Shown here: positions 1,236 through 49,879 of the stretch, piece after piece
How the letters are laid out: the number at the start of each line of letters is the position of its first letter
Numbering within the stretch: position 1 is the stretch's first letter
Assembly (NCBI GenBank): GCA_964386385.1
Contig: CAYLRN010000007.1
Coordinates: 54,374 to 118,373 of the forward strand
Direction of reading: 5' to 3'
DNA from: an uncultured Lentisphaeraceae bacterium
GTDB taxonomy: Bacteria; Verrucomicrobiota; Kiritimatiellia; RFP12; UBA1067
Length of the DNA: 64,000 nt
Program-made: the position numbers and the translations under genes
The notes under the pieces: generated by a model
What the model was told of the DNA's origin: nothing
The model's database searches: none
What the model saw: the letters and a program-made list of their open reading frames with translations, nothing else

Positions 1236-1278
1236 CCATGCGTCTTTCGGGATGATGCGTGTCATCACGCGCCGCCGC

Positions 1279-1693
1279 GGGCGAACGGCGCGACGGGACG
1301 TCGTGCCCTACCGGGGACGGCCGTTCAATTGCCCTTTCAATCGCGACGGCGCGTGGGGACACGCGCCCTCCCCGTGAAAAGGCATGACGGTAGGGCGCGA
1401 CGTCTCGTCGCGCCGCCGTGGGCGGTTGCTTTCGCTTCGTGGAGTTTTGGAGGCTTGGAGTTCTTCGTCTCCCGATTTCCGAAACTCCCAGTGGCGAAAG
1501 CAACGAGACGAGGGGATTTTTGTCTCACGCGGTGCCGCTGGCGGGACGTCGCGCCCTACCGAATTGGCCCTTCAACCGCCTTTTCCCCCGCAGCGGCGGA
1601 CGAGGACGTCCGCCCTCCCGATGAAAAGGCATGACGGTAGGGCGGGGCTTCCGCCCCGCCGCGTTGGCGGACGCGCAGGAGCGCGTCCCTCCC
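1279..1693. repeat. tandem block (~237-bp period, about 1.7 copies) of composite REP-like units built from three modules: X = GGCGCGACGGGACGTCGCGCCCTACC, Y = GGTAGGGCGCGACGTCTCGTCGCGCC, Z = an 80-nt long hairpin
   Basis: Modules X and Y recur with a 237-bp offset (X near 1290 and 1527; Y near 1375 and 1612). The same Z-X-Y unit recurs at 3089-3346. The palindromes GGCGCGACG-TCT-CGTCGCGCC, GGCGGGGC-TTCC-GCCCCGCC and GGACGCGC-AGGA-GCGCGTCC are read directly from the sequence. Confidence 0.6.
1435..1536 (+). other. long imperfect hairpin (module Z: GTTGCTTTCGC...GCGAAAGCAAC, 11-bp closing stem with a nested GGAGTTT/AAACTCC stem) followed by a short hairpin GAGACGAGGGGATTTTTGTCTC; a structured element or small RNA candidate
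   Basis: Inverted repeats seen directly. A second copy at 3089-3190 keeps the pairing and has compensating changes (GATT to AAAC inside the loop region). Confidence 0.4.
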
Positions 1694-1784
1694 ACAGGGG
1701 AATGATTTTTCGTGTCCGCGCAGATGGTGTTCGCGTCCTTTTGTGCTTACCCCATAGAGCCTCTCCAACCGTCCGCATCCTTCT

Positions 1785-2045
1785 TCGTCCGCACCGTAAT
1801 CTCATTCGTTCGTCCTCTGCGGGAAGTGTTGCGCAATCGTTCGCTACCGCACCGTCGTCCAATCCAATCATTTGATTGCATGCCTACTAGATGCCATTTT
1901 GGGAAGTTCAATGGCAGACTGCAATGATGGAGGCAGGATTCCACCACCCACGGATTTTTATAAGTCCGTGGGTGGTTTTAGTGCGGAGAATGGAGAATGA
2001 GGTCTTCCCTTCGTAAGATTATGATGCGGACGAAATTGCTGGCGT
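1785..2045. mobile_element. MITE-like low-GC element with degenerate terminal inverted repeats (TCGTCCGCACCGTAATCTCAT ... TAAGATTATGATGCGGACGAA)
   Basis: The left arm matches the perfect inverted-repeat element at 2120-2194, and the right arm is a diverged copy. GC content drops sharply inside. No transposase ORF. Confidence 0.35.
1944..1979 (+). terminator. rho-independent terminator-like hairpin CCACCCACGGA-(loop)-TCCGTGGGTGG followed by TTTTA
   Basis: 11-bp perfect stem followed by a T-run, located inside the MITE-like element. No nearby upstream gene, so its function is uncertain. Confidence 0.3.
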
Positions 2046-2119
2046 TGAGGTCGGAGGCTGTTTCTGTTTCATGGTGAAATCGGAGACGCGGAGAAAAGAA
2101 CTCGTTTCGCAGATTGATT

Positions 2120-2194
2120 TCGTCCGCACCGTAATCTCATGAATGCCGCTTCGCCGTCCTCCCTTCTTGTGTCATGAGATTACGGTGCGGACGA
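2120..2194. mobile_element. 75-bp element with perfect 23-bp terminal inverted repeats (TCGTCCGCACCGTAATCTCATGA / TCATGAGATTACGGTGCGGACGA)
   Basis: Perfect inverted repeat read directly; same arm sequence as the element at 1785-2045. Typical miniature inverted-repeat architecture. Confidence 0.4.
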
Positions 2195-2376
2195 ATTGCT
2201 AAACTCTTCAAAATGCCGCCTTGACAGGGCAAAAGAGAAAATGCTACACTAGCCGCGTTTCATGTTCGGAAAGGCTCTGTTCGGGGATGGGGAGCGATTG
2301 CCCGAAAGGGACGTTTTCGCCGTCTGGGGCGGGACTTTTGGGCAAGGCGATTTCAAGATTCAAGGGAAAGAGCAAA

Positions 2377-3078
2377 ATGGGCATTTGGGAAGTCTTTATG
2401 TCCTTGATTTCAAGATGCAGAAAGTCGTTGCAGGCGACTGCTGCCGAGATTGACGGACGGACGTGGTCGTACTCCGTCAGCTCGAGTACGGCGTCCATAA
2501 CTCGCGTCTTGCCGGGCGATGGGGAGGTCAATATACCATCAGAAGTAAATGGATACAAGGTGACGAGAATCGAATCGTCTGCGTTCCGTGGCTGTGGCGG
2601 TCTCAAGTCGGTGACTATCCCTTCGAGCGTGACGAGCATCGACAAGAAGGCGTTTCAAGCCTGTAGCGGCATAAAGTCGTTTTCAGTCGCGCACGACAAT
2701 CCGATATATTCCTCCGCCAACGGGTTGCTTTTGACAAAAGACGGTACGGAGTTGATCGCCGGCGTGAACGGTGACGTGCAAATCCCCTCGGGCGTGACGA
2801 GCATCGGCGAGCGTGCGTTCTACGACTGCATCAGCCTGACGAGCGTGACGATCCCTTCGGACGTGGCGAGCATCGGCGAGTATGCGTTCTACGGCTGCAT
2901 CAGCCTGACGAGCGTGACGATCCTGGGGAATGCGCCGGACATCGCAGACAGCATCCTGATTCCGTCGGACGCCGTGGTGTACGTCATGCGTGGGGCGACA
3001 GGGTGGGATGTGCAGATTCCAGGTACATGGAAGGGATGTCGTATCGAGCATATCTCCCGAGCGGACGCCCTGGGCTGA
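2377..3078 (+). CDS. BspA-type leucine-rich-repeat (LRR_5) protein, short and possibly a truncated fragment
   Basis: Repeated ~23-aa units IPSSVTSIGEYAFYGCISLTSVTIP are typical of BspA-like LRR surface proteins. No signal peptide and only 234 aa (BspA proteins are usually long and secreted). Low GC (about 50%). The ORF starts at 2221, but ATG 2377 has an AAGGGAAAG ribosome-binding site. Confidence 0.5.
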   Translation: MGIWEVFMSLISRCRKSLQATAAEIDGRTWSYSVSSSTASITRVLPGDGEVNIPSEVNGYKVTRIESSAFRGCGGLKSVTIPSSVTSIDKKAFQACSGIKSFSVAHDNPIYSSANGLLLTKDGTELIAGVNGDVQIPSGVTSIGERAFYDCISLTSVTIPSDVASIGEYAFYGCISLTSVTILGNAPDIADSILIPSDAVVYVMRGATGWDVQIPGTWKGCRIEHISRADALG

Positions 3079-3088
3079 CAATGAGTAC

Positions 3089-3346
3089 TGCTTTCGCTGT
3101 GTGGAGTTTTGGAGGCTTGGATCTCTTCGTCTCCCAAACTCCGAAACTCCCGGTGGCGAAAGCAACGGGGCGAGGGGATTTTTGTCTCACGCGCCGCTGC
3201 GGGCGAACGGCGCGACGGGACGTCGCGCCCTACCGAATTGGCCCTTCAACCGCCTTTTCCCCCGCAGCGGCGGACGAGGACGTCCGCCCTCCCGATGAAA
3301 AGGCACGATGGCAGGGCGCGACGTCTCGTCGCGCCGCCGTGGGCGA
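3089..3346. repeat. single composite REP-like unit (Z hairpin, X, Y); a direct repeat of the block at 1279-1693
   Basis: About 90% identity to 1435-1650 over roughly 230 bp, with the module order conserved. Confidence 0.6.
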
Positions 3347-3523
3347 TCATGTGGTTGATGGCGAATGGCCATGCGCCTCCCGATGAGACTGGCATCAGAC
3401 GTTTAACCGCCTTATCTCCCAAAGCATGAGGGCGGACGATGCCGTCCGCCCTCATGGAACTCAATCACTTGACTGCTTAACCGCCTAACAGTTTTTCCAG
3501 ACGTTCGCGCCTGGAAAAACTGT

Positions 3524-10204: not shown

Positions 10205-12100
10205 TCAGCGCGCGATGACGGCCTTCATGAACCGGGCGCCCTTGGTCGTCACCTTGATGACGGCCTGGTTGTCCTCGTTGAAGGAGAGGTTGGCGGCGTC
10301 ATACGTCTGCGCCGTCCATTCGCCGTCAAGCGTCGTCGCCGTCTTCACCGTGAATCTGCCGTTCACCGTGTCCGCCGCGAGGGCGACGGCCTGTTCGCCA
10401 TCCGCCACCTTCGCCGTTGCCTTGACGGTCACAGTCCAATATTCGCCGTCTTTCCCAATCGCAACTATCTCAAGCGTTGGGATCTCCGTCGGAACGGACG
10501 TCATGCCGAGCAGGTAGGCGGCCGCGCCGCGGTCGCTGTTGACGTCGCCGAACGCCAGCCCGTTCGCCGTCGCCCAGTCTTCGATCTGCGCCAGTTCATC
10601 CTCCGTCGGCGGCACGTCGCCCCAGACGGCCGACATCTCCGGCGTACCCCAGTCGACGGAGTACTTCAGGCTGTACGTCACGAGCGAACCGGCCGTCTCT
10701 TTGACCACCTCGTATCCGTCCGCGCCCGACTCCACCTCGCCGTTGTAGGCGGCGATGGACGTGTCAAGGCAAAGCGTCTCCGTTGCGGACGACAGCGTGA
10801 GCGGAACTGCGTTCGCCGCCATGACGCGGTAGGTCGTGTCGGCGCCGGCTGCGAGCACGGCGTCGTCCGCCACGAACGCCGCATTGCCGTCCTCTACCGT
10901 CGCGAAGTAAAGCCCCGAGGCTTTCGCGCTCACCGCGCCGGTGGAGACCATGTTCGCCGGCGCCGTCCCGCCCGTCACCGCCGTCGAACCCGTGTACACC
11001 CAGCCGACGAACGAGCCGACCTTTGCGCCTGAGACCGCGTTCGCGACGTCTAACGACCCCGTCACCTTGCAGTCGGCGATTTCAGCCGGACAGGACGCAT
11101 AGGCGATGATTCCGCCCACGCCGTCCCGGCCGCCCTTGCCCATCGTGTTGCCGACGACGAGTGCGCCCCTGTGCTCGCAGCGCGTGAAGACCGCCTTGTG
11201 CGAGCCGTTCTGGGAGAGAATCGAGATGCCGCCCACCTTCGTGTAGTCGCCGTAGACCGTGGCGGCGTTCACGCAGTCCGTGACCTTGACGTCCGCCGTA
11301 GCGGGCGTCAGGCGCACGACGACGCCGGCCATGTTGTGGCGGCCGGGCTTGTCGGCGGACGCGAACGTCCCCGACGCCGTGAGGTTCTCCAGCACGGAGC
11401 CGTTGGCCGCGTGGCCGACGATCGCGCCGCCGAACTCGTCCGCCGCGCCGGTGAACGACACGTTCTCGACCGTCAGGTTTTTGATCGTGCCGCCCTCGAC
11501 CTGGTTGAAGATCCCTGCGTAGTTGCGGTCAGTGAACGTGACGTCGGATATCTTGAACCCGCCGCCGTCGTAGACGCCCTTGAACGCCTTGCCCGCGCCG
11601 GGAGTCGCCGCGTACGTGCCAATGCCCTCCCACGCGCTGGACGGCATGCTGATGTCCTTCGTCTGCCGGAAGCATATGCCCTCCGTCGGCACGCCCATCA
11701 CCACGCCATAGCCGATCTTCTTCAGTTCGTTGACGTTCTGGATCTTCCACGGATTCCCCTCCGTGCCCGCTCCGTTGGAGAAGTACCATGTCCAGTCAAG
11801 CGTGTCGAGGGCAAGTTCGCCGCCCGCCACCACTGACGTGGATTTTGAAGAGGACGCGCCGTCCGAGAGCGTTCCGCGAAGGGCAATGTACTCTCCAGCG
11901 GGCAGCTGCATCACCGCCATTCCGTCCGACACCGTGAGGTCGGTGTAGGCATCGGCGTAGCCCACCTTGTACTGGACGGACGACAGCGTCGTCATCCACC
12001 TCAACGTGAATTCCACAAGTTCCTCTGCATATGCGGACGCCGCGCACAACGCCGCGCAAAGCAGCGCGCCCATTCTCTTTCTCATTGCTCTCTGCATCAT
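10205..12100 (-). CDS. secreted repeat protein (GLUG/beta-helix-like surface protein), function unknown
   Basis: Signal peptide (MMQRAMRKRMGALLCAALCAASAYA). Gly-rich repeats such as GGTIKNLTVENVSFTGAADEFGGAIVGHAANG resemble GLUG or beta-helix motifs. Start placed at the second in-frame Met (the ORF extends to 12142). Confidence 0.45.
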   Translation of the reverse strand: MMQRAMRKRMGALLCAALCAASAYAEELVEFTLRWMTTLSSVQYKVGYADAYTDLTVSDGMAVMQLPAGEYIALRGTLSDGASSSKSTSVVAGGELALDTLDWTWYFSNGAGTEGNPWKIQNVNELKKIGYGVVMGVPTEGICFRQTKDISMPSSAWEGIGTYAATPGAGKAFKGVYDGGGFKISDVTFTDRNYAGIFNQVEGGTIKNLTVENVSFTGAADEFGGAIVGHAANGSVLENLTASGTFASADKPGRHNMAGVVVRLTPATADVKVTDCVNAATVYGDYTKVGGISILSQNGSHKAVFTRCEHRGALVVGNTMGKGGRDGVGGIIAYASCPAEIADCKVTGSLDVANAVSGAKVGSFVGWVYTGSTAVTGGTAPANMVSTGAVSAKASGLYFATVEDGNAAFVADDAVLAAGADTTYRVMAANAVPLTLSSATETLCLDTSIAAYNGEVESGADGYEVVKETAGSLVTYSLKYSVDWGTPEMSAVWGDVPPTEDELAQIEDWATANGLAFGDVNSDRGAAAYLLGMTSVPTEIPTLEIVAIGKDGEYWTVTVKATAKVADGEQAVALAADTVNGRFTVKTATTLDGEWTAQTYDAANLSFNEDNQAVIKVTTKGARFMKAVIAR

Positions 12101-12517: not shown

Positions 12518-12591
12518 GGTGGGATGGCCGAGCGGTTAGGTCGCGGACTGCAAATCCGCTTACAGCGGTTCAACTCCGCTTCCCACCTCCA
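12518..12591 (+). tRNA. tRNA-Cys (anticodon GCA)
   Basis: Acceptor stem GGTGGGA/TCCCACC, anticodon stem-loop GCGGA-CTGCAAA-TCCGC, T-arm AGCGG-TTCAACT-CCGCT, 3' CCA encoded. Confidence 0.85.
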
Positions 12592-12686: not shown

Positions 12687-12715
12687 TGCGGAGGCCGGGC
12701 CGGTTTTGGTATAAT
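12687..12715 (+). promoter_or_regulatory. sigma-70-type extended -10 promoter (TGgTATAAT) for pbuX-xpt
   Basis: TATAAT at 12710-12715 preceded by TGG; weak -35 element. The leader to the ATG at 12768 is about 50 nt, too short for a purine riboswitch. Confidence 0.4.
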
Positions 12716-14873: not shown

Positions 14874-16019
14874 ATGAATCGCATAATCTTGAACGAGACA
14901 TCGTATCACGGCGCCGGAGCCGTAGCGGAAATCGTCGGCGAACTCGCCCGGCGCGGACTTAAGAGGCCAATCGTCTTCTCCGACCCCGACCTGGTGAAGT
15001 TCGGCGTCACGAAGAAGGTGACGGACGTCCTCGACGGCGCGAACGTCCCGCACGTCCTCTACAGCGACATCAAGCCGAACCCGACGATCGAGAACGTCAG
15101 GAACGGCGTCAAGGCGTTCAAGAAGGCGAAGGCCGACTGCATCGTCGCCATCGGCGGCGGCTCGTCCATGGACACCGCCAAGGCCGTCGGCATAATCGCC
15201 GCGAACCCGGAGTTCGCCGACGTCCGCTCCCTTGAGGGCGTCGCCCCCACGAAGAAGCCCGCAAAGCCCATTCTCGCCGTGCCGACTACTGCCGGCACCG
15301 CCGCCGAGGTCACGATCAACTACGTGATCACCGACGTCGAGAAGCACCGCAAGTTCGTGTGCGTCGACCCGCACGACATTCCCGTCGTCGCGTTCGTCGA
15401 CCCGGACATGATGTCCACGATGCCCAAGGGCCTCACCGCGTTCACCGGCATGGACGCGCTGACCCACGCGATCGAGGGCCTCATCACGAAGGGCGCCTGC
15501 GAGCTCACCGACATGTTCCATCTCAAGGCGATCGAGATCATCTCCCGCTCCCTGCGCGACGCGGTGGCCAACAAGCCGTCCGGGCGCGAGGGCATGGCGC
15601 TGGGGCAGTACATCGCCGGCATGGGCTTCTCCAACGTCGGCCTCGGCATCGACCATTCGATGGCGCACGGCCTCTCCGCCCTCTACGACGTCCCGCACGG
15701 CAAGGCCTGCGCGATTCTCCTGCCGACTGCGATGAAGTACAACGCCTCGAAGACCGGCACGAAGTACCGCGAGATCGCCCGTGCGATGGGCGTGAAGGGC
15801 GTTGACGGGATGAAGCCCGCCGAATACCGCCAGGCCGCGATTGCCGCCGTCGAGAAGCTCTCGGCCGACGTCGGAATCCCGGCGGACCTCAAGGGAATCC
15901 TGAAGGAGGAGGACGTCCAGTTCCTGGCCGAGTCCGCCTACGCCGACGCCTGCCGCCCCGGCAACCCCCGCGAGACGTCCGTGAAGGACATCGCCAGGCT
16001 CTACAAGTCGCTCATGTAG
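14874..16019 (+). CDS. iron-containing alcohol dehydrogenase (lactaldehyde reductase/FucO-like)
   Basis: Fe-ADH signatures are present (GGGSSMDTAKA, the two His pairs such as …HSMAHGL…). The ORF track merges it with an upstream frame, but MNRIIL at 14874 has an AAGTGGAGAC ribosome-binding site. Confidence 0.8.
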   Translation: MNRIILNETSYHGAGAVAEIVGELARRGLKRPIVFSDPDLVKFGVTKKVTDVLDGANVPHVLYSDIKPNPTIENVRNGVKAFKKAKADCIVAIGGGSSMDTAKAVGIIAANPEFADVRSLEGVAPTKKPAKPILAVPTTAGTAAEVTINYVITDVEKHRKFVCVDPHDIPVVAFVDPDMMSTMPKGLTAFTGMDALTHAIEGLITKGACELTDMFHLKAIEIISRSLRDAVANKPSGREGMALGQYIAGMGFSNVGLGIDHSMAHGLSALYDVPHGKACAILLPTAMKYNASKTGTKYREIARAMGVKGVDGMKPAEYRQAAIAAVEKLSADVGIPADLKGILKEEDVQFLAESAYADACRPGNPRETSVKDIARLYKSLM

Positions 16020-16109
16020 GGCTTGCGGCATTCCCCGCAATGCAAGGCCGTCGCCGCGGCGCTTTTTCTGCGGCGGCGGCGTCTGCGGGAAACGCGAAGA
16101 GAGGAATCA

Positions 16110-17804
16110 GTGCGCGTTGAGGAACTTGAAAATCTGCTGGCGGAACTGATAGACGGCTGGGAGAACGAGGTCGTCGAGTTCAAGATCGGCAACAGGAACA
16201 CTTCGTCCGACGAGGTGGGAAGGTATTTTTCGGCGCTTTCGAACGAGGCCAATCTGCGGGGGATGGAGCGGGCGTGGCTTGTGTTTGGCGTGGACAACAA
16301 GACGAAGTCCGCGCCTGGCTGCGAGTATCCCTGCGACGCCGCTTCGCTGAACAAGTCCGGAGGCCTCAAGCAGCAGATTGTCCAAGGTACAAATCTTGGA
16401 CTGGGCTTTACCGAGGTGCATCTGATTCCAAGGGGAAGCGCAAACGTGATTCTCTTTGAAATACCGCCGGCTCCGCAATCCATGCCCATTGCGTGGAAAG
16501 GACATTTCTACGCAAGGGCGGGTGAAAGCCTGACCGCGCTTGACGTAGGAAGGCTTGATGTCATGCGAAGTCAAGGTGCGGCGCTTGATTGGACGGCTGG
16601 GACGCTGGAAAATGCGACCATGGAGATGCTTGACGAGGAGGCTCTTGCGCTGGCGCGCAGGCAGTTCGCCGAAAAGCACGCCAACGTGGATTCCGGTGAA
16701 GTCAACGAATGGCCTGCGGGGGTCTTTCTGGACAGGCTTAGGCTGATGCGCGGCGGAAAGCTGACACGCGCGGCTCTATTGCTCCTGGGCAGGGCGGAGG
16801 CGGCAGCGGAACTCCTTTCGCCGTATCTGCCGCAAATCGTATGGAAACTGGTCGGGGAGGAAACTGCCAACGACATATTCCATCCGCCGTTTCTGCTGGC
16901 GACAACCCGGCTCTATTCGCGGATTCGCAACGTGCAGGTCCGAGTGCTCCCGGAGAACCGCCTGTTTGCGACCGAAGTCCCAAAGTACAGCCAGAAAAGC
17001 GTATTGGAGGCCTTGAACAACTGCATTGCGCATCAGGACTACTCAAGGGGCGAAAGGATTGTCGTAACGGAATACGTGGACCGTCTTGTGTTTTTGAACG
17101 GCGGAAGGTTCTTCGAGGGGCGGCCGGACGACTATGTCGCCGGAGACCGCACTCCGCGACGCTACAGGAATCCTCTGCTTTCTTCGGCCATGCGCGAACT
17201 CAACATGATTGACACGATGGGCTATGGCATCCATGCCATCTACGTCGGGGAGGCAAGAAGGTATTTTCCGTTGCCCGACTACGAGACAGATGAGACGTCC
17301 GTCAAGATGACAATGTACGGTCATGTCGTCGACGTCGCCTATTCAACGCTTCTCATTGAAAGAGGCGGCGAATTGCGCCTGGACGACGTTCTGCTGCTTG
17401 ACCGAGTGCAGAAAGGACTGCAAATTTCCAAGGACGCGATGCGCCATCTGCGAATGGAAGGCCTGATCGAGGGACGGGCGCCGCATCTTCGCGTTTCGGC
17501 AAAGGTGGCGGCATTGACCGGACGCAAAACGGAATACATGAAGAAAAGAGAGCGGGCAAGCGAGCATTACCACGGTCTGATTCTTGAGTTCATCGGCAAA
17601 TGGCCAAGGTCGTCCCGCGCCGAAATCAATGAGTATCTGATGGATGAAATCGTCGGGGAATTTTCCAAAGAGGAAAAAATGTCCAAAATAACAAACTGGC
17701 TCTCGTATCTGCGAAAGAGTGGACGAATCAGAAATGTCGGGACTGATGCGAATTCCCGGTGGATTCTTGTGGATTCCAATGAGGCTTCAATGTGCCTCCA
17801 ATGA
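16110..17804 (+). CDS. AlbA_2 (Schlafen-like) DNA-binding domain plus HATPase_c_4 ATP-binding protein ('putative transcriptional regulator / RecG-like')
   Basis: N-terminal E-x-x-E-L…VEFK motif and overall architecture of AlbA_2/HATPase_c_4 family proteins. Noticeably lower GC (about 55%) than its flanks. GTG start at 16110 has a GAGAGGAA ribosome-binding site (the ORF extends to 16023, overlapping the upstream gene). Confidence 0.65.
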   Translation: MRVEELENLLAELIDGWENEVVEFKIGNRNTSSDEVGRYFSALSNEANLRGMERAWLVFGVDNKTKSAPGCEYPCDAASLNKSGGLKQQIVQGTNLGLGFTEVHLIPRGSANVILFEIPPAPQSMPIAWKGHFYARAGESLTALDVGRLDVMRSQGAALDWTAGTLENATMEMLDEEALALARRQFAEKHANVDSGEVNEWPAGVFLDRLRLMRGGKLTRAALLLLGRAEAAAELLSPYLPQIVWKLVGEETANDIFHPPFLLATTRLYSRIRNVQVRVLPENRLFATEVPKYSQKSVLEALNNCIAHQDYSRGERIVVTEYVDRLVFLNGGRFFEGRPDDYVAGDRTPRRYRNPLLSSAMRELNMIDTMGYGIHAIYVGEARRYFPLPDYETDETSVKMTMYGHVVDVAYSTLLIERGGELRLDDVLLLDRVQKGLQISKDAMRHLRMEGLIEGRAPHLRVSAKVAALTGRKTEYMKKRERASEHYHGLILEFIGKWPRSSRAEINEYLMDEIVGEFSKEEKMSKITNWLSYLRKSGRIRNVGTDANSRWILVDSNEASMCLQ

Positions 17805-17875
17805 GCCTCTGTCTTTAAATAAGCGAAAATGAGCGAATTGACCAGAATGTCGCTCTTGTGGCGAGGATTTGAAAC

Positions 17876-18424
17876 ATGAATTCCAATGAGATTCCAATGA
17901 GCGGCCCTGATGGTGGCACGACGTCCGTTCCCACCGCTTCGGTCGTGGTGAGGCGGGCGGCGGCGGGGGACGTCCCCGCCATCGGACGCCTTCTCCTCCA
18001 GGTCTGCGCGGTCCATGCCGCCGGCCGGCCGGACCTCTTCCGCGCCGGCGGGCGCAAGTACTCCGACGCGGAGCTTGAAGGAATCCTGGCCGACGACGCC
18101 ACGCCGGTCTTCGTCGCCTGCGGCGCGGACGGCGAGGTCTGCGGCCACGCATTCTGCGTCGTGGAGGAGCGCGCGGGCGGCGGCGCGATGCGCCCGTGCC
18201 GGACGCTGTACGTGGACGATATATGCGTGGACGAGGGCGCGCGCGGCCGCGGCGTCGGGACGGCGCTCTACAACCACGTCGTCGCGTGGGCGGCCGGACG
18301 CGGCTTCTACAACGTCACCCTCAACGTCTGGTCGTGCAACCCCGGCGCCCTTCGCTTCTACGAGGCGATGGGCATGAAGCCGTACAAGGTCGGCATGGAG
18401 CGCGTGCTTCGTCCGTCAACGTGA
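17876..18424 (+). CDS. GNAT-family N-acetyltransferase
   Basis: Acetyl-CoA-binding motif (…VDEGARGRGVGTALYNHV…) and a length of about 180 aa. Confidence 0.75.
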   Translation: MNSNEIPMSGPDGGTTSVPTASVVVRRAAAGDVPAIGRLLLQVCAVHAAGRPDLFRAGGRKYSDAELEGILADDATPVFVACGADGEVCGHAFCVVEERAGGGAMRPCRTLYVDDICVDEGARGRGVGTALYNHVVAWAAGRGFYNVTLNVWSCNPGALRFYEAMGMKPYKVGMERVLRPST

Positions 18425-18436
18425 AAGGAGCGGCCG

Positions 18437-18913
18437 ATGTCCGTTTCCATTGCGGAAAAGCTCGTGGAGCTGATGAAGGCGCGCGGCGTCACGTGCGCCG
18501 TTGCGGAATCGTGCACCGGCGGCGGGGTGGGGCGGGCGCTGACGGCCGTCCCGGGCGCGAGCGAGGTCTTCCTCGGCGGCGTAGTGAGCTACGCGAACTC
18601 CGTGAAGGAGGATGTGCTTGGGGTGCCGCCGGACGTGCTGAAGACGGTCGGCGCGGTGAGCGCGGAGTGCGCGGAGGCGATGGCCGCCGGCGCGCGCCGT
18701 CTGCTGAAGGCCGACGTCGCCGTGTCCGTGACGGGGATCGCAGGGCCGGGCGGCGGCAGCGCGGAAAAGCCGGTGGGGCTTGTGTGGTTCGGAATCGCAA
18801 CCGTTCGGGGCGTCCGCTCGGAGAGGGCGATATTCTGCGGCGACCGCGAGGCGGTCCGCGCGAAGGCCGTCGTCCACGCGCTCGGAATGCTCACCGCCGC
18901 GGCGGGGGGCTGA
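18437..18913 (+). CDS. CinA C-terminal-domain protein (NMN deamidase PncC-like)
   Basis: 158 aa matching the CinA_C domain (…CAVAESCTGGGVG…VSVTGIAGPGGG…). Confidence 0.85.
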   Translation: MSVSIAEKLVELMKARGVTCAVAESCTGGGVGRALTAVPGASEVFLGGVVSYANSVKEDVLGVPPDVLKTVGAVSAECAEAMAAGARRLLKADVAVSVTGIAGPGGGSAEKPVGLVWFGIATVRGVRSERAIFCGDREAVRAKAVVHALGMLTAAAGG

Positions 18914-46822: not shown

Positions 46823-46993
46823 GGTCTTGAATCCGGTTCCCGAACGACGGGAAGCAGGACAGGGGCGTCGTCCGGTCACGGTCGGCGTCCCTGGCTTTCG
46901 TTGAAGGAATGGCGCTGCGTGCTGGAATGCCGCCTGTTCGGCGGCGAATGATGAAGGGCGGAATGCATGGAAGACATGGAATGCACGGAATAC

Positions 46994-48190
46994 ATGGACA
47001 CGATCACATTGGCATTCGACCGCGACTATCCGACGCGGCGTCGCCATCCGTGGGTGTTCTCCGGCGCTGTCTATCTTCGCGAGGGATGCCCGGTGCGTGG
47101 GGGGACGGTGCGGGTCTGCAACGCGAAGGGCGAGACGCTGGGATACGGCAGCTATTCCTCCAGAAGCCAGATTCGCGTAAGGATGCTTTCCTTCAACGCG
47201 GCGAAATGCCCTGACGACGAATTTGTCGCGGGACTCGTCTCCGCCGCCGTCGCGCGCCGGGCCGCCTTCCGCGCCACTGGGACGACGAACGCGATGCGGC
47301 TCGTCAACGCGGAGAGCGACGGACTCCCCGGCGTCGTCGCCGACGAATACGACGGCTGGGTCGTCGTCCAGCTGGCGAGCGCGGGCGCGGAGTTCTGGAA
47401 GAAGGCGATCGTCTCCGCCCTCATGGACTCCGTGCCCGGCTGCAAGGGCGTCTACAACCGCAGCGACGTCGCGTCGCGGAGGCACGAGGGGCTTAAGGAG
47501 GAGACGGGACTTCTCGCCGGCGACGAGCCGCCCGAGCTCATTGAAGTGCACGAGGGCGCCATCCGATATCTCGTGGACGTCAGGCATGGACACAAGACCG
47601 GCTTCTACCTCGACCAGCGCGAAGCCCGCGCGCAGGTCGCCGCCTACGCCGCCGGCGCGGACGTCCTCAACTGCTTCTCCTACACCGGCGGGTTCGGGCT
47701 TTCCGCGCTCGCCGGCGGCGCCGCGCATGTCACGCACCTCGACGTCTCCGCTTCGGCGCTTGAACTTGCGCGGCGCAACACGGAACTCTGCGGCGAACGT
47801 TTCATGGGACGCAGCGAGTTCGTGGAGGCCGACGTCTTCAAGCAGCTCCGCCTCTATCGCGACATGAGGCGCAGTTTCGACCTTATCGTGCTCGATCCGC
47901 CGAAGTTCGCGGACACGAAGAAGGGTCTGATGCGCGCCGCGCGCGGCTACAAGGACATCAACCTCCTGGCGATGAAGCTCCTGCGCCCAGGCGGCGTCCT
48001 CGCCACGTTCTCCTGCTCCGGCGCGGTGACGCCCGAGCTCTTCGGCAAGATCTGCGCCGAGGCCGCTTTCGACGCCCGACGCGACTTCCAGGTCATTGCG
48101 CAGACGCGCCAGGCCGCCGACCACCCCGTCTCGCTTTCCTTCCCCGAAGGCCTCTACCTGAAGGGGCTTCTCCTCCGCTCGTCGTCGTGA
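46994..48190 (+). CDS. rlmI: SAM-dependent 23S rRNA m5C methyltransferase (RlmI-like)
   Basis: N-terminal …RRHPWVFSGAV… (PUA-like) and a Rossmann SAM-binding core (…NCFSYTGGFG…VLDPPKF…). Start placed at MDTITLA by analogy with RlmI. Confidence 0.7.
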   Translation: MDTITLAFDRDYPTRRRHPWVFSGAVYLREGCPVRGGTVRVCNAKGETLGYGSYSSRSQIRVRMLSFNAAKCPDDEFVAGLVSAAVARRAAFRATGTTNAMRLVNAESDGLPGVVADEYDGWVVVQLASAGAEFWKKAIVSALMDSVPGCKGVYNRSDVASRRHEGLKEETGLLAGDEPPELIEVHEGAIRYLVDVRHGHKTGFYLDQREARAQVAAYAAGADVLNCFSYTGGFGLSALAGGAAHVTHLDVSASALELARRNTELCGERFMGRSEFVEADVFKQLRLYRDMRRSFDLIVLDPPKFADTKKGLMRAARGYKDINLLAMKLLRPGGVLATFSCSGAVTPELFGKICAEAAFDARRDFQVIAQTRQAADHPVSLSFPEGLYLKGLLLRSSS

Positions 48191-48230
48191 CGGCGGCTAT
48201 GTCCGTCAACTTGCAACTTGGAGAGACCTG

Positions 48231-48872
48231 ATGTTCGAGCCACAGCCATTTGAACGGTCAAAGCACGTCTACCAATGCGACGCTTTCAGCGAACTGCTGA
48301 AGGATGCTGTTCGTTTTTTCCACGGAACGCCGGTCTGCGCATTTCCGCCCGGGGAAAGGTTCGTTGGCGCGGGCGTCTATGCGCTGTACTACATTGGCAA
48401 AACGGGCTTGTATGGAAAGTTTGGGCAGGAAATAAATCGAGAGGAGTATCGTCTGCCCATCTATGTCGGCAAGGCCGAACCGTCTGGCTGGCGGCAGAGC
48501 AGAGTCGCGGTCTCGGAGAAGTCCGGCGGCAAGTTGTTTGAGCGCCTGTCCCAGCACGCGCGGAACGTGAACTGCGCAAGGAATCTTGACTTGGGCGATT
48601 TCGTGTGCCGGCTGATGATTCTTGAGGGCGCTGTCGCGGCCATGATCGCCTCCATAGAGGCGGCGTTGATCGCCATGCATCGTCCGCTATGGAACAGCGT
48701 GATAGACGGCTTCGGCAATCACAATCCCGGCAGGGAGAGGCTTACCGGCAAGATCACGCAGTGGGACGCCTTGCATCCGGGGCGGCCGTGGGTGAAGGAG
48801 ATGTCGGGCGAGGCGCCCGATCCGAAAACGCTGAACAGGCGTGTAAAAGACTATTTGGCCGGAATGCGATGA
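48231..48872 (+). CDS. Eco29kI-family GIY-YIG type II restriction endonuclease
   Basis: 213 aa (R.Eco29kI is 214 aa). GIY-YIG core GVYALYYIGKTGLYGKF…PIYVGKA. Overlaps the downstream MTase by ATGA, as in the Eco29kI system. Low GC (about 52%). Confidence 0.65.
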   Translation: MFEPQPFERSKHVYQCDAFSELLKDAVRFFHGTPVCAFPPGERFVGAGVYALYYIGKTGLYGKFGQEINREEYRLPIYVGKAEPSGWRQSRVAVSEKSGGKLFERLSQHARNVNCARNLDLGDFVCRLMILEGAVAAMIASIEAALIAMHRPLWNSVIDGFGNHNPGRERLTGKITQWDALHPGRPWVKEMSGEAPDPKTLNRRVKDYLAGMR

Positions 48873-49879
48873 GAAGCCTTGAACTGTTCAGCGGTTGCGG
48901 CGGACTGGCGAAAGGCCTTGAGCAGGCGGGTTTTGAGCATTGCGCCTTCGTTGAGTTCAACAGATGGGCGTGCGAGAGCCTGCGCGCGAACTTCGATCCG
49001 TCACTTGTCCATGAAGTCGATGTTCGGGCGTTCGACTTCAAGACCGTGGGAAATGTCGATTTGATTGCGGGAGGGCCGCCTTGTCAGCCATTTTCCCTGG
49101 GCGGACTGTCACGCGCCCACGAGGATGAGCGGGACATGTTTCCGCAGGCCATCAGAGCCGTTAACGAGCTTGCGCCAAAGGGCTTTGTCTTCGAGAACGT
49201 CAAGGGGCTGCTTCGAAAGAGCTTCTCCGATTATTTCGAGTACGTTGTCCTGCGTCTGACGTATCCGCGACAGGCGTCCTCCGCCGGCATGGTCTGGAAG
49301 GAGCATCTGTCCGAATTGCGCAAAATCGATTTCGCGGCGTATGGCGGATTGAAGTACGACATGCAGTATCGGCTGCTCAACGCAGTCGACTATGGGGTGC
49401 CCCAGCGCAGGGAGCGCGTGTTCATCGTCGGAATTCGACAGGACCTTGGACTGAAGTGGGAGTGGCCTGCCAAGGAGTCGAGAATGGCGACGATCGCGGA
49501 CGCCATAGGAAGACTGCCCGATCCGCGGAGCGACCACGGCCTTGACGACCATGTTTTCGTCGATGGCGCTCGCGAATATCCAGGGCATACCGGCAGCGAC
49601 TACAACAAGCCCAGCAAGACGATAAAGGCAGGCGCCCATGGTGTTCCCGGAGGGGAGAACATGATTCGGTTTCCCAATGGACTGCTGCGCTACATGACCG
49701 TCCACGAGGCAAAGGTCATCCAGTCGTTTCCCGACGACTATCGCATTTGCGGTTCGTGGGGCGAGGCATTGCGGCAGATCGGGAATGCCGTCCCCGTCCG
49801 CCTTGCGCGGCTGGTCGGGGAGCGGATGATGCAGACGCTTGGCGGTTTCTCCCACGCCCCCCGCTGCGCGTTTCCGTAA
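48869..49879 (+). CDS. DNA (cytosine-5)-methyltransferase
   Basis: Motif I LFSGCGG, motif IV GGPPCQPFS, motif VI ENV, motif VIII QRRERVFIVG, motif X GNAVPV. Confidence 0.85.
   Translation: MRSLELFSGCGGLAKGLEQAGFEHCAFVEFNRWACESLRANFDPSLVHEVDVRAFDFKTVGNVDLIAGGPPCQPFSLGGLSRAHEDERDMFPQAIRAVNELAPKGFVFENVKGLLRKSFSDYFEYVVLRLTYPRQASSAGMVWKEHLSELRKIDFAAYGGLKYDMQYRLLNAVDYGVPQRRERVFIVGIRQDLGLKWEWPAKESRMATIADAIGRLPDPRSDHGLDDHVFVDGAREYPGHTGSDYNKPSKTIKAGAHGVPGGENMIRFPNGLLRYMTVHEAKVIQSFPDDYRICGSWGEALRQIGNAVPVRLARLVGERMMQTLGGFSHAPRCAFP

Follow-up and report, generated by a model that had tools for sequence, protein, structure and literature searches.

A solitary Schlafen-ATPase gene and its 3' tandem repeats in the genome of a Lentisphaeraceae bacterium

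Schlafen-ATPase proteins and the product of the window gene

The DNA analyzed here, 64,000 nucleotides (nt) of contig CAYLRN010000007.1 from an uncultured Lentisphaeraceae bacterium (the window), contains an interval of low GC content that holds a single plus-strand gene (16110-17804). Its product of 564 amino acids (aa) joins a Schlafen domain to an ATPase domain and two winged helices. A total of 5,930 bacterial Schlafens have been catalogued (Perez Taboada et al., Nat Microbiol 2026, PMC13056530). The commonest pSlfn classes in that catalogue are HisKinase fusions (34%) and HisKinase-HTH fusions (19.2%; HTH, helix-turn-helix). Bacterial Schlafens are tRNA-cleaving proteins that protect against phage, with Ex4(E/D)xK as their catalytic motif (PMC13056530). 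Two of the seven pSlfn systems tested, the DUF262 and Ig-like fusions, gave phage protection, and the Ig-like fusion cuts tRNA anticodon arms (PMC13056530). Known defence genes lie within 10 kb of 69.6% of the pSlfn genes, and 30% are not near them (PMC13056530).

The pairing of SLFN with PF13749 has been named the 'Schlatpase' supradomain and is present in 58.6% of 103,533 prokaryotic SLFN proteins (bioRxiv 10.64898/2026.05.29.728809). Most Schlatpases are small stand-alone proteins or have an HTH at the C-terminus (bioRxiv 10.64898/2026.05.29.728809). In RzAgo of Runella zeae, where this module is joined to a prokaryotic Argonaute (pAgo), ATP is bound via E314 and N318 and drives the formation of tetramers, in which a bilobed Schlafen nuclease is restored; cleavage of tRNA and abortive infection follow, and the D32A change abolishes the cleavage (bioRxiv 10.64898/2026.05.29.728809). 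TrlG of Photorhabdus laumondii contains AlbA_2 and HATPase_c_4. Loss-of-function in either domain permits growth at 36-37 °C, and TrlG therefore enforces growth arrest (PMC7554251). Proteins that combine Schlafen, ATPase, and DNA-binding domains are tightly linked to restriction-modification (R-M), BREX, and type I CRISPR systems, and it is not known how they become activated (PMC13462974). A preliminary description of this stretch had called such proteins functionally undefined. This is outdated, as the class has been named, its mechanism has been structurally worked out in SLFN-pAgo, and TrlG has been genetically characterized.

Judging from its sequence, the window protein is a member of the Schlatpase-HTH (pSlfn HisKinase-HTH) class, which was already named and described in 2026. 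Both Pfam domains, SLFN_AlbA_2 (7.4e-9, 36.6 bits, cutoff 25.3) and HATPase_c_4 (PF13749; 1.8e-11, 44.3 bits, cutoff 26), score above their cutoffs. The preliminary description had recognized this pair and missed the two winged helices at the C-terminus. The predicted domains are as follows.

16110-16559, plus strand: Schlafen/AlbA_2 nuclease domain, about aa 1-150, with motif E18-x4-E23-x-K25 at 16161-16184
16980-17324, plus strand: GHKL (PF13749) ATPase domain, about aa 291-405, with N box E300/N304 at 17007-17021 and G2 box D368-T-x-G-Y-G-I
17325-17768, plus strand: two winged-helix domains, about aa 406-470 and 484-553

With the pSlfn HisKinase-HTH class the protein shares the Slfn domain (via PF04326), the Ex4(E/D)xK motif, the fusion to a GHKL-clan domain and an HTH, and the domain order SLFN_AlbA_2, PF13749, C-terminal HTH. 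The Schlatpase supradomain is represented by both Pfam domains in order and by the putative ATP/Mg-binding residues E300 and N304. The gene also shares with the class a patchy, horizontal distribution and relatives in R-M and defence operons. Proximity to defence genes, which is typical of the class and not defining, is not seen for the solitary copy in the window.

An AlphaFold2 monomer model built from 62 sequences was confident (predicted local distance difference test 85.4, predicted template modelling score 0.74). The middle domain of the model matched the GHKL folds of histidine-kinase catalytic and ATP-binding domains and of pyruvate dehydrogenase kinase. The C-terminus matched the winged helices of MecI, PadR, MarR, and Zalpha. 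Across the 62 sequences, W17, E18, E20, E23, F24, and K25 (Ex4ExK; E18-NEVV-E23-F-K25 in the window) are invariant, as is E46. The N box E300-x3-N304 and the G2 box D368-T-x-G-Y-G-I are invariant as well, and the spacing of the N box equals that of the RzAgo ATP/Mg ligands E314 and N318. When compared with the ortholog in locus L002, the ratio of nonsynonymous to synonymous divergence (dN/dS) was 0.124 (dS 0.34). The gene is intact and under purifying selection. The last winged helix (aa 484-553, 17559-17768) is the fastest-evolving domain, with 39-50% identity where the Schlatpase core has 70-75% and the first winged helix 75-82%.

Public annotations commonly name such proteins RecG helicase, because the title of PF13749 carries that name. 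This annotation was rejected, as the motor domains of a superfamily-2 helicase were found neither by Pfam nor by fold matching. No curated NCBIfam family was matched. A weak PADLOC match to pAgo lies over the GHKL region and is explained by RzAgo having the same SLFN and PF13749 supradomain. No close relative of the protein was found in viral contigs.

The described systems resemble the window protein in different ways. It has the SLFN and PF13749 module of RzAgo. It does not have the Argonaute core and guide-RNA sensing, and two winged helices stand in place of the pAgo sensor; it is also smaller (564 aa vs ~1,100 aa). TrlG has the same AlbA_2 and HATPase_c_4 pair, is patchy within its genus, and is subject to the same RecG-like misannotation, a likeness that rests on domain content. 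Its operon is trlR-trlF-trlG, and neither trlF (a PHP 'histidinol phosphatase') nor trlR (a 79-aa regulator) flanks the window gene or its relatives in L002, L180, and L187. PrrC and RloC also pair an NTPase with an RNase. The prrC gene sits within its prr locus at position X of hsdM-hsdS-X-hsdR (PMC1484252, PMC3458546), and relatives of the window gene occupy that same operon slot. Embedding in type I R-M is seen for the relatives and not for the window copy. RloC, which is rarely linked to R-M, offers a parallel to the solitary copy. PrrC unites an ABC ATPase with a HEPN-like anticodon nuclease, whereas the window protein unites GHKL, Schlafen, and winged-helix domains; these are unrelated folds, and the likeness is one of logic alone. 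A protein of known structure, DIP2311 of Corynebacterium diphtheriae (PDB 3LMM), has ~20% sequence identity to the window protein; it comes from structural genomics and is uncharacterized.

Insertion between the Fe-ADH and GNAT genes

It is strongly supported that ~16028-17939 (~1.9 kb) is inserted foreign DNA. The preliminary description had proposed a low-GC islet between genes for an iron-containing alcohol dehydrogenase (Fe-ADH) and a GNAT acetyltransferase. Pfam confirmed both neighbours, with CinA next. The features are listed below.

14874-16019, plus strand: Fe-ADH gene, host left flank (Pfam Fe-ADH and ADH_Fe_C), 95.2% nt identity to L181 up to 16019
16028-17939, no strand assigned: inserted segment, 1,912 bp, 55.6% GC, missing from empty-site relatives
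16028-16109, plus strand: insert leader, ~73% GC in its first 62 nt, kept in L002
16110-17804, plus strand: Schlafen-GHKL ATPase gene with two winged helices ('Schlatpase-HTH'), 564 aa, GTG start
17806-17879, plus strand: AT-rich spacer (40-47% GC) separating both repeat sets, kept in L002
17876-18424, plus strand: GNAT acetyltransferase open reading frame (ORF) as called, 182 aa (Pfam Acetyltransf_1)
18437-18913, plus strand: CinA-family gene, host right flank (Pfam CinA, 3.3e-56), syntenic in L002, L013, and L181-L184

The gene has 55.7% GC (55.4% over 16020-17900), while Fe-ADH has 65.3%, GNAT 69.9%, CinA 72.1%, and the whole window 65.0%. At third codon positions (GC3), the value is 0.66, against a mean of 0.86 over 41 ORFs of the window, ~0.88 for the neighbours, and 0.93 for Fe-ADH. 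In 30-nt steps, GC drops at ~16085-16110 and recovers at ~17910-17940. The low GC that had been reported from the sequence was thus borne out by both GC steps and codon usage.

Four relatives with an empty site (L181-L184) were reached via the GNAT homologs P0122 and P0123. Their relatedness to the window equals that of the gene-carrying L002, with Fe-ADH nt identities of 95.2% (L181) and 90.5%. In these relatives, Fe-ADH is followed after 23 or 24 nt by GNAT and then CinA. Homology of the window to L181, L182, and L184 stops at 16019-16027 and restarts at 17940-17942. The gene is also missing from all 80 related Fe-ADH loci of species-representative genomes. The labels of the closest Fe-ADH loci point to a gut organism of the Kiritimatiellia type as the host. 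Synteny based on Fe-ADH was of little use in these genomes, and the decisive empty site came via the GNAT homologs. Only L013 among the species-representative Fe-ADH loci retains any synteny; there, Fe-ADH directly adjoins CinA, without GNAT or the Schlafen-ATPase gene. The insertion is taken to be the derived state because the segment is low in GC, because GNAT has its family-typical length in the empty-site genomes, and because the more divergent L184 is also empty. The proposal of foreign DNA held up in this comparison, and relatives do not uniformly carry the gene in this slot at host-like GC; its low GC is kept in both lineages that have it.

The annotated GNAT ORF begins within the insert, an overlap that the preliminary description had overlooked. 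GNAT homologs are mostly 156-167 aa long and span ~85% of the query, and those of the empty-site genomes have a normal 165-167 aa with CinA next and native N-termini MPGNGKTVEV or MALETPLVEV. The window GNAT has a 25-aa N-terminal extension over the family-typical length. Its first ~21 codons are insert-derived and its host-derived part begins at 17940. It starts at ATG 17876, and a second in-frame ATG (17897-17899) lies within the terminal repeats of the insert. The insertion removed the native start of the GNAT gene. Comparison of filled and empty sites thus delimits the transferred unit within a few tens of bases and reveals that the start of a neighbouring gene was rewritten by the insertion.

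On the left, the 4-bp gap or overlap that had been described is an artefact of the longest ORF (16023-17804), which uses TTG at 16023. This start was discarded in favour of GTG 16110, because GTG 16110 is preceded by AGAGAGGAA, which resembles a ribosome-binding site (16097-16105), because the database entry P0001 is an identical 564-aa product with the same start, and because all 61 aligned homologs (61/61) begin at that residue. With this start, the gap after the Fe-ADH stop (16019) is 90 nt. A terminator-like hairpin (16047-16061) followed by a T-run was found in the leader by a terminator scan.

An ortholog, P0002 (loci L002-L011), is 92% identical and occupies the same slot between Fe-ADH and GNAT, with CinA next. 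Between the window and L002, the gene has 90.5% nt identity and the flanks 90-91%, with dS of 0.34 for the gene and 0.13-0.43 for the flanks. The L002 ortholog is still low in GC (55.1%). As the gene has diverged to the same degree as its flanks, the insertion is older than the split and has been inherited vertically since. The ~1.9 kb of foreign DNA would have entered in the common ancestor of the window genome and the L002 lineage. Atypical composition and presence/absence polymorphism are shared with classical genomic islands. The integrase, tRNA target, and flanking direct repeats of such islands are not present here. No recombinase was found in the insert, no target-site duplication was seen against the empty site, no tRNA lies at the insertion site (tRNA-Cys is 3.5 kb away), and the repeat core described below is not at the left insert end.

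The surroundings of the window copy and of its relatives differ. Within 10 kb of the window copy are genes for a permease, an xpt-like protein, Fe-ADH, GNAT, CinA, a major facilitator superfamily protein, and an FAD oxidoreductase. No hsd-like sequence was found in the window, and the nearest R-M-type gene, for an Eco29kI-like restriction endonuclease, is ~30 kb away. For the relatives, neighbours were clustered unsupervised in 88 loci and the cluster representatives were annotated with Pfam. All five distinct contexts (5/5) of relatives with 66-70% identity are type I R-M operons, hsdM-hsdS-X-hsdR-RadC. Most relatives with 51-57% identity are in operons of a SNF2 helicase, DUF4391, an N6_N4 methylase, X, and Res (ResIII and RE_endonuc), or in type I operons. 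Thus, the relatives with 51-70% identity are mostly within type I or type III R-M operons. In 35 of the 44 loci that extend 2.5 kb or more to either side of the gene, an R-M gene is the immediate same-strand neighbour, and several of the remaining loci adjoin 2,000-aa DEAD-MZB helicases. Annotated Roseobacteraceae plasmids have the same R-M layout, with the gene named 'RNA-binding domain-containing protein'; 'transcriptional regulator' is also used for relatives in public annotations. In the type I operons of the closest relatives (L092 15129-18927; L095, L096, L100), hsdR is always followed by RadC (UPF0758). Downstream in L092 are also CTD7, MC3, and LmuB_C genes, and upstream is a serine recombinase, which makes this locus a composite defence island.

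The relative with 76% identity (P0003/P0244) is solitary like the window copy. It lies 3' of LepA, IF3, and a CDP-alcohol phosphatidyltransferase in another high-GC host, is intact, and has 48% GC against 66% in its flank. Together, these two solitary copies indicate that the mobile unit of this subclade is a single gene, which enters housekeeping neighbourhoods. All contigs of the P0003/P0244 lineage (L187, L188, L189, and L190) end exactly 270 nt past the gene, which hints at an element that breaks assemblies, such as a repeat, shortly beyond this point.

Tandem repeats at the 3' end

A repeat-containing junction on the right had been reported in the preliminary description, and it was found again. 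The core TCCAATGAG occurs four times in the 64 kb, all within 17775-17901, where 0.29 would be expected. The repeats form two sets.

17773-17805, plus strand: three tandem 11-nt units, ATTCCAATGAG, GCTTCAATGTG, and CCTCCAATGAG, encoding the C-terminal tail, with the TGA stop (17802-17804) in the third
17880-17901, plus strand: two further tandem 11-nt units, ATTCCAATGAG twice, where the low-GC tract ends on the right, inside the annotated GNAT ORF

The 11-mer is present in 3+2 copies in both the window and L002, in four perfect copies in L180, and in three copies in L187, a locus near-identical to L180. The repeat tract moves together with the gene, in a variable number of copies. Between the near-identical lineages of L180 (3141-3184) and L187 (~11545-11575), the number differs, at four copies vs three. 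The stop codon of the ORF falls in the third copy (CAATGA) in the window, in L180, and in L187, so that extra copies come after it. In the window clade, ATGA is found in every unit, any reading frame is closed by three copies, and in the window itself GNAT takes its new ATG from the copies.

Other clades have different units at the same position, including TGCAGAA(A/T)nAA, AATGTCAGAGAG, AAATTCCAATGT, AAGTCTTTGTAA, and GTCAAGATAGAA. At least five distinct classes of repeat unit are present, and the unit period is mostly 11-12 nt. A tandem-repeat score (period 9-15, 200 nt around the stop) was compared between 71 dereplicated relatives and 254 control gene ends of the same loci. The median was 9 vs 5 in the controls, and scores of at least 14 were reached in 13% vs 0% (Mann-Whitney p = 1.2e-20, which overstates independence because the sequences are phylogenetically related). 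Tandem repeats at the stop codon are a family-wide feature. They are not mentioned in PMC13056530 or in the Schlatpase preprint (bioRxiv 10.64898/2026.05.29.728809).

Several roles for the repeats were considered. Sequences at 16030-16045 and upstream of the L180 copy resembled the repeat unit by eye and were examined as a left insert flank or upstream operator; this role was rejected, as the core showed no enrichment upstream of the gene over 38 loci (Wilcoxon p 0.71). Structured RNA in the repeat region was also rejected, since it folded no better than shuffled sequence (z 0.04). Type III toxin-antitoxin systems (ToxIN-like) have an array of repeats of ~34-36 nt upstream of an endoRNase gene that gives a structured antitoxin RNA, whereas the repeats of this family are 11-12 nt long, in two to four copies, and at or after the stop. 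The sequence class of the last winged helix tracks the repeat class. This co-variation was downgraded as proof of binding, since it is partly trivial: the first repeat copy encodes C-terminal residues.

It is tentatively proposed that the gene and its 3' repeats of 11-12 nt form a self-contained mobile module, in which the repeats might be a cis-element for plugging into R-M operons or the 5' end of an unrelated gene. The repeats are candidates for cognate head-to-tail sites of the fast-evolving last winged helix (their period is about one helical turn), for a switch variable in copy number, and for a stop/start adaptor for insertion into operons.

Possible function of the solitary copy

By analogy with described systems, the stand-alone Schlatpase-HTH is probably an autonomous growth-arrest or abortive-infection effector on a vertically kept ~1.9-kb insert, with no R-M partner next to it. 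An ATP-gated RNase, tRNA cutting, growth arrest, and a winged-helix gate are suggested by homology to RzAgo, RorSlfn5, Cash, and TrlG. ATP-gated oligomerisation would bring single-lobed Schlafen domains together in pairs to form the active nuclease, which would cut tRNA (or other RNA) and thereby stop translation and growth. The winged helices may provide a nucleic-acid cue or a tether that gates the nuclease. In most relatives, the gene would be an accessory of type I or type III R-M operons, at the place of PrrC in the prr locus, and the window copy would work without such a partner beside it. That a solitary copy is under purifying selection argues that the protein can act autonomously. A link to defence had been raised in the preliminary description and is plausible.

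A number of observations weigh against an autonomous effector of this kind. PADLOC v2 models gave no significant match, and no known defence gene lies within 10 kb of the window copy. The HisKinase-fused systems that have been tested were outside the protective two of seven on the phage panel (PMC13056530), and the literature holds no demonstrated activity or trigger for the stand-alone Schlatpase-HTH class. No counterpart to the third acidic residue of mammalian Schlafens could be assigned, and the position of D62 is D, N, H, or E in the relatives. In the window, a formal scan yielded no promoter-like site. A sigma-70 promoter upstream of the L180 copy, spotted by eye, was also dropped when the formal scan did not find it.

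The protein could instead be a sequence-specific DNA-binding regulator, whose winged helices bind the 3' repeats and regulate the gene that follows (hsdR or res in R-M operons, GNAT here), with the ATPase as a switch and the Schlafen domain as a nucleic-acid-binding module. At the stop codons of the family, just 5' of the next gene, there are indeed repeats whose period approximates one helical turn, two winged-helix domains are present, and the last of them diverges fastest and is of a class that tracks the repeats. The public name 'transcriptional regulator' for relatives agrees with this. Such a regulator appears unlikely, however. The invariant Ex4ExK and E46 of the 62 sequences are hard to square with a pure binder, and loss-of-function in the AlbA_2 and ATPase domains of TrlG relieves growth arrest. 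The co-variation of helix and repeat is partly trivial, as noted above, and the repeat core is without enrichment upstream of the gene. A growth-arrest module of the TrlG kind that responds to stress (for example, a temperature or DNA damage cue), with no role against phage or mobile elements, is improbable to much the same extent. The shared AlbA_2 and HATPase_c_4 pair, the growth of Photorhabdus at 36-37 °C once TrlG is lost, and the position of the window copy among metabolic genes and outside a defence island are in keeping with it, as is the 30% of pSlfn genes found away from defence genes (PMC13056530). The TrlG partners trlF (PHP) and trlR are not at the window locus, though, and R-M operons and defence islands are where the closest relatives are found. 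Defence genes typically have the patchy, horizontally moving distribution seen here, and the likeness to TrlG is known from domain content, not from sequence comparison.

The gene might also be a functionless relic, either a fragment of an R-M operon or a hitch-hiking gene in decay, as it is solitary without an R-M partner, has atypical codon usage, and has no detected promoter. This is very unlikely and already disfavoured. At least three lineages carry an intact 564-codon ORF, dN/dS is 0.124 at a dS of 0.34, the catalytic and ATP-binding motifs are all retained, and the relative with 76% identity is likewise intact at a second locus.

Other regions of the window and of the related loci also have unusual features. 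A low-GC3 ORF (0.72; 48231-48872, plus strand) encodes an Eco29kI-family restriction endonuclease (PF09517, 1.6e-56). It adjoins an ORF on the minus strand with a GC3 of 0.635 and no Pfam match (49109-49855). Upstream of it on the plus strand is a gene for a PUA and SAM methyltransferase that is RlmI-like and not an obvious DNA methylase (46967-48190). The region 46967-49855 may be another small acquired R-M islet. The region ~1240-3520 has 57-59% GC and no confident gene; its ORF at 2244-2645 (minus strand) has a GC3 of 0.64 and no Pfam match. The tRNA-Cys gene (12518-12591) is ~100 nt from a break in synteny, with homology to L002 beginning at 12695. Upstream of the permease, L002 (1-4286) has two DNA_methylase genes, an HNH_2 gene, and three small ORFs, with no tRNA on the contig. 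The tRNA-Cys/permease region has the appearance of a variable spot loaded with defence genes. Fe-ADH proteins 74-93% identical to that of the window were found with unrelated flanks (L012-L091) in metagenome-assembled genomes labelled Kiritimatiellia, Clostridia, Lachnospiraceae, and others. This wide spread reflects either unusual conservation, exchange among gut bacteria, or mislabelled bins.

Taken alone, the window gene is one more horizontally acquired Schlafen-ATPase, in a class that already makes up more than half of bacterial Schlafens. It adds a member to a known defence-linked family. Of note are the solitary copy under selection and the 3' repeats, the latter being absent from PMC13056530 and the Schlatpase preprint. 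The window copy is a clean natural case of the gene without its usual R-M partners and offers a simple single-gene test of the trigger of the majority class. The family-wide 3' repeats are a testable lead on the regulation or movement of Schlatpase-HTH proteins.

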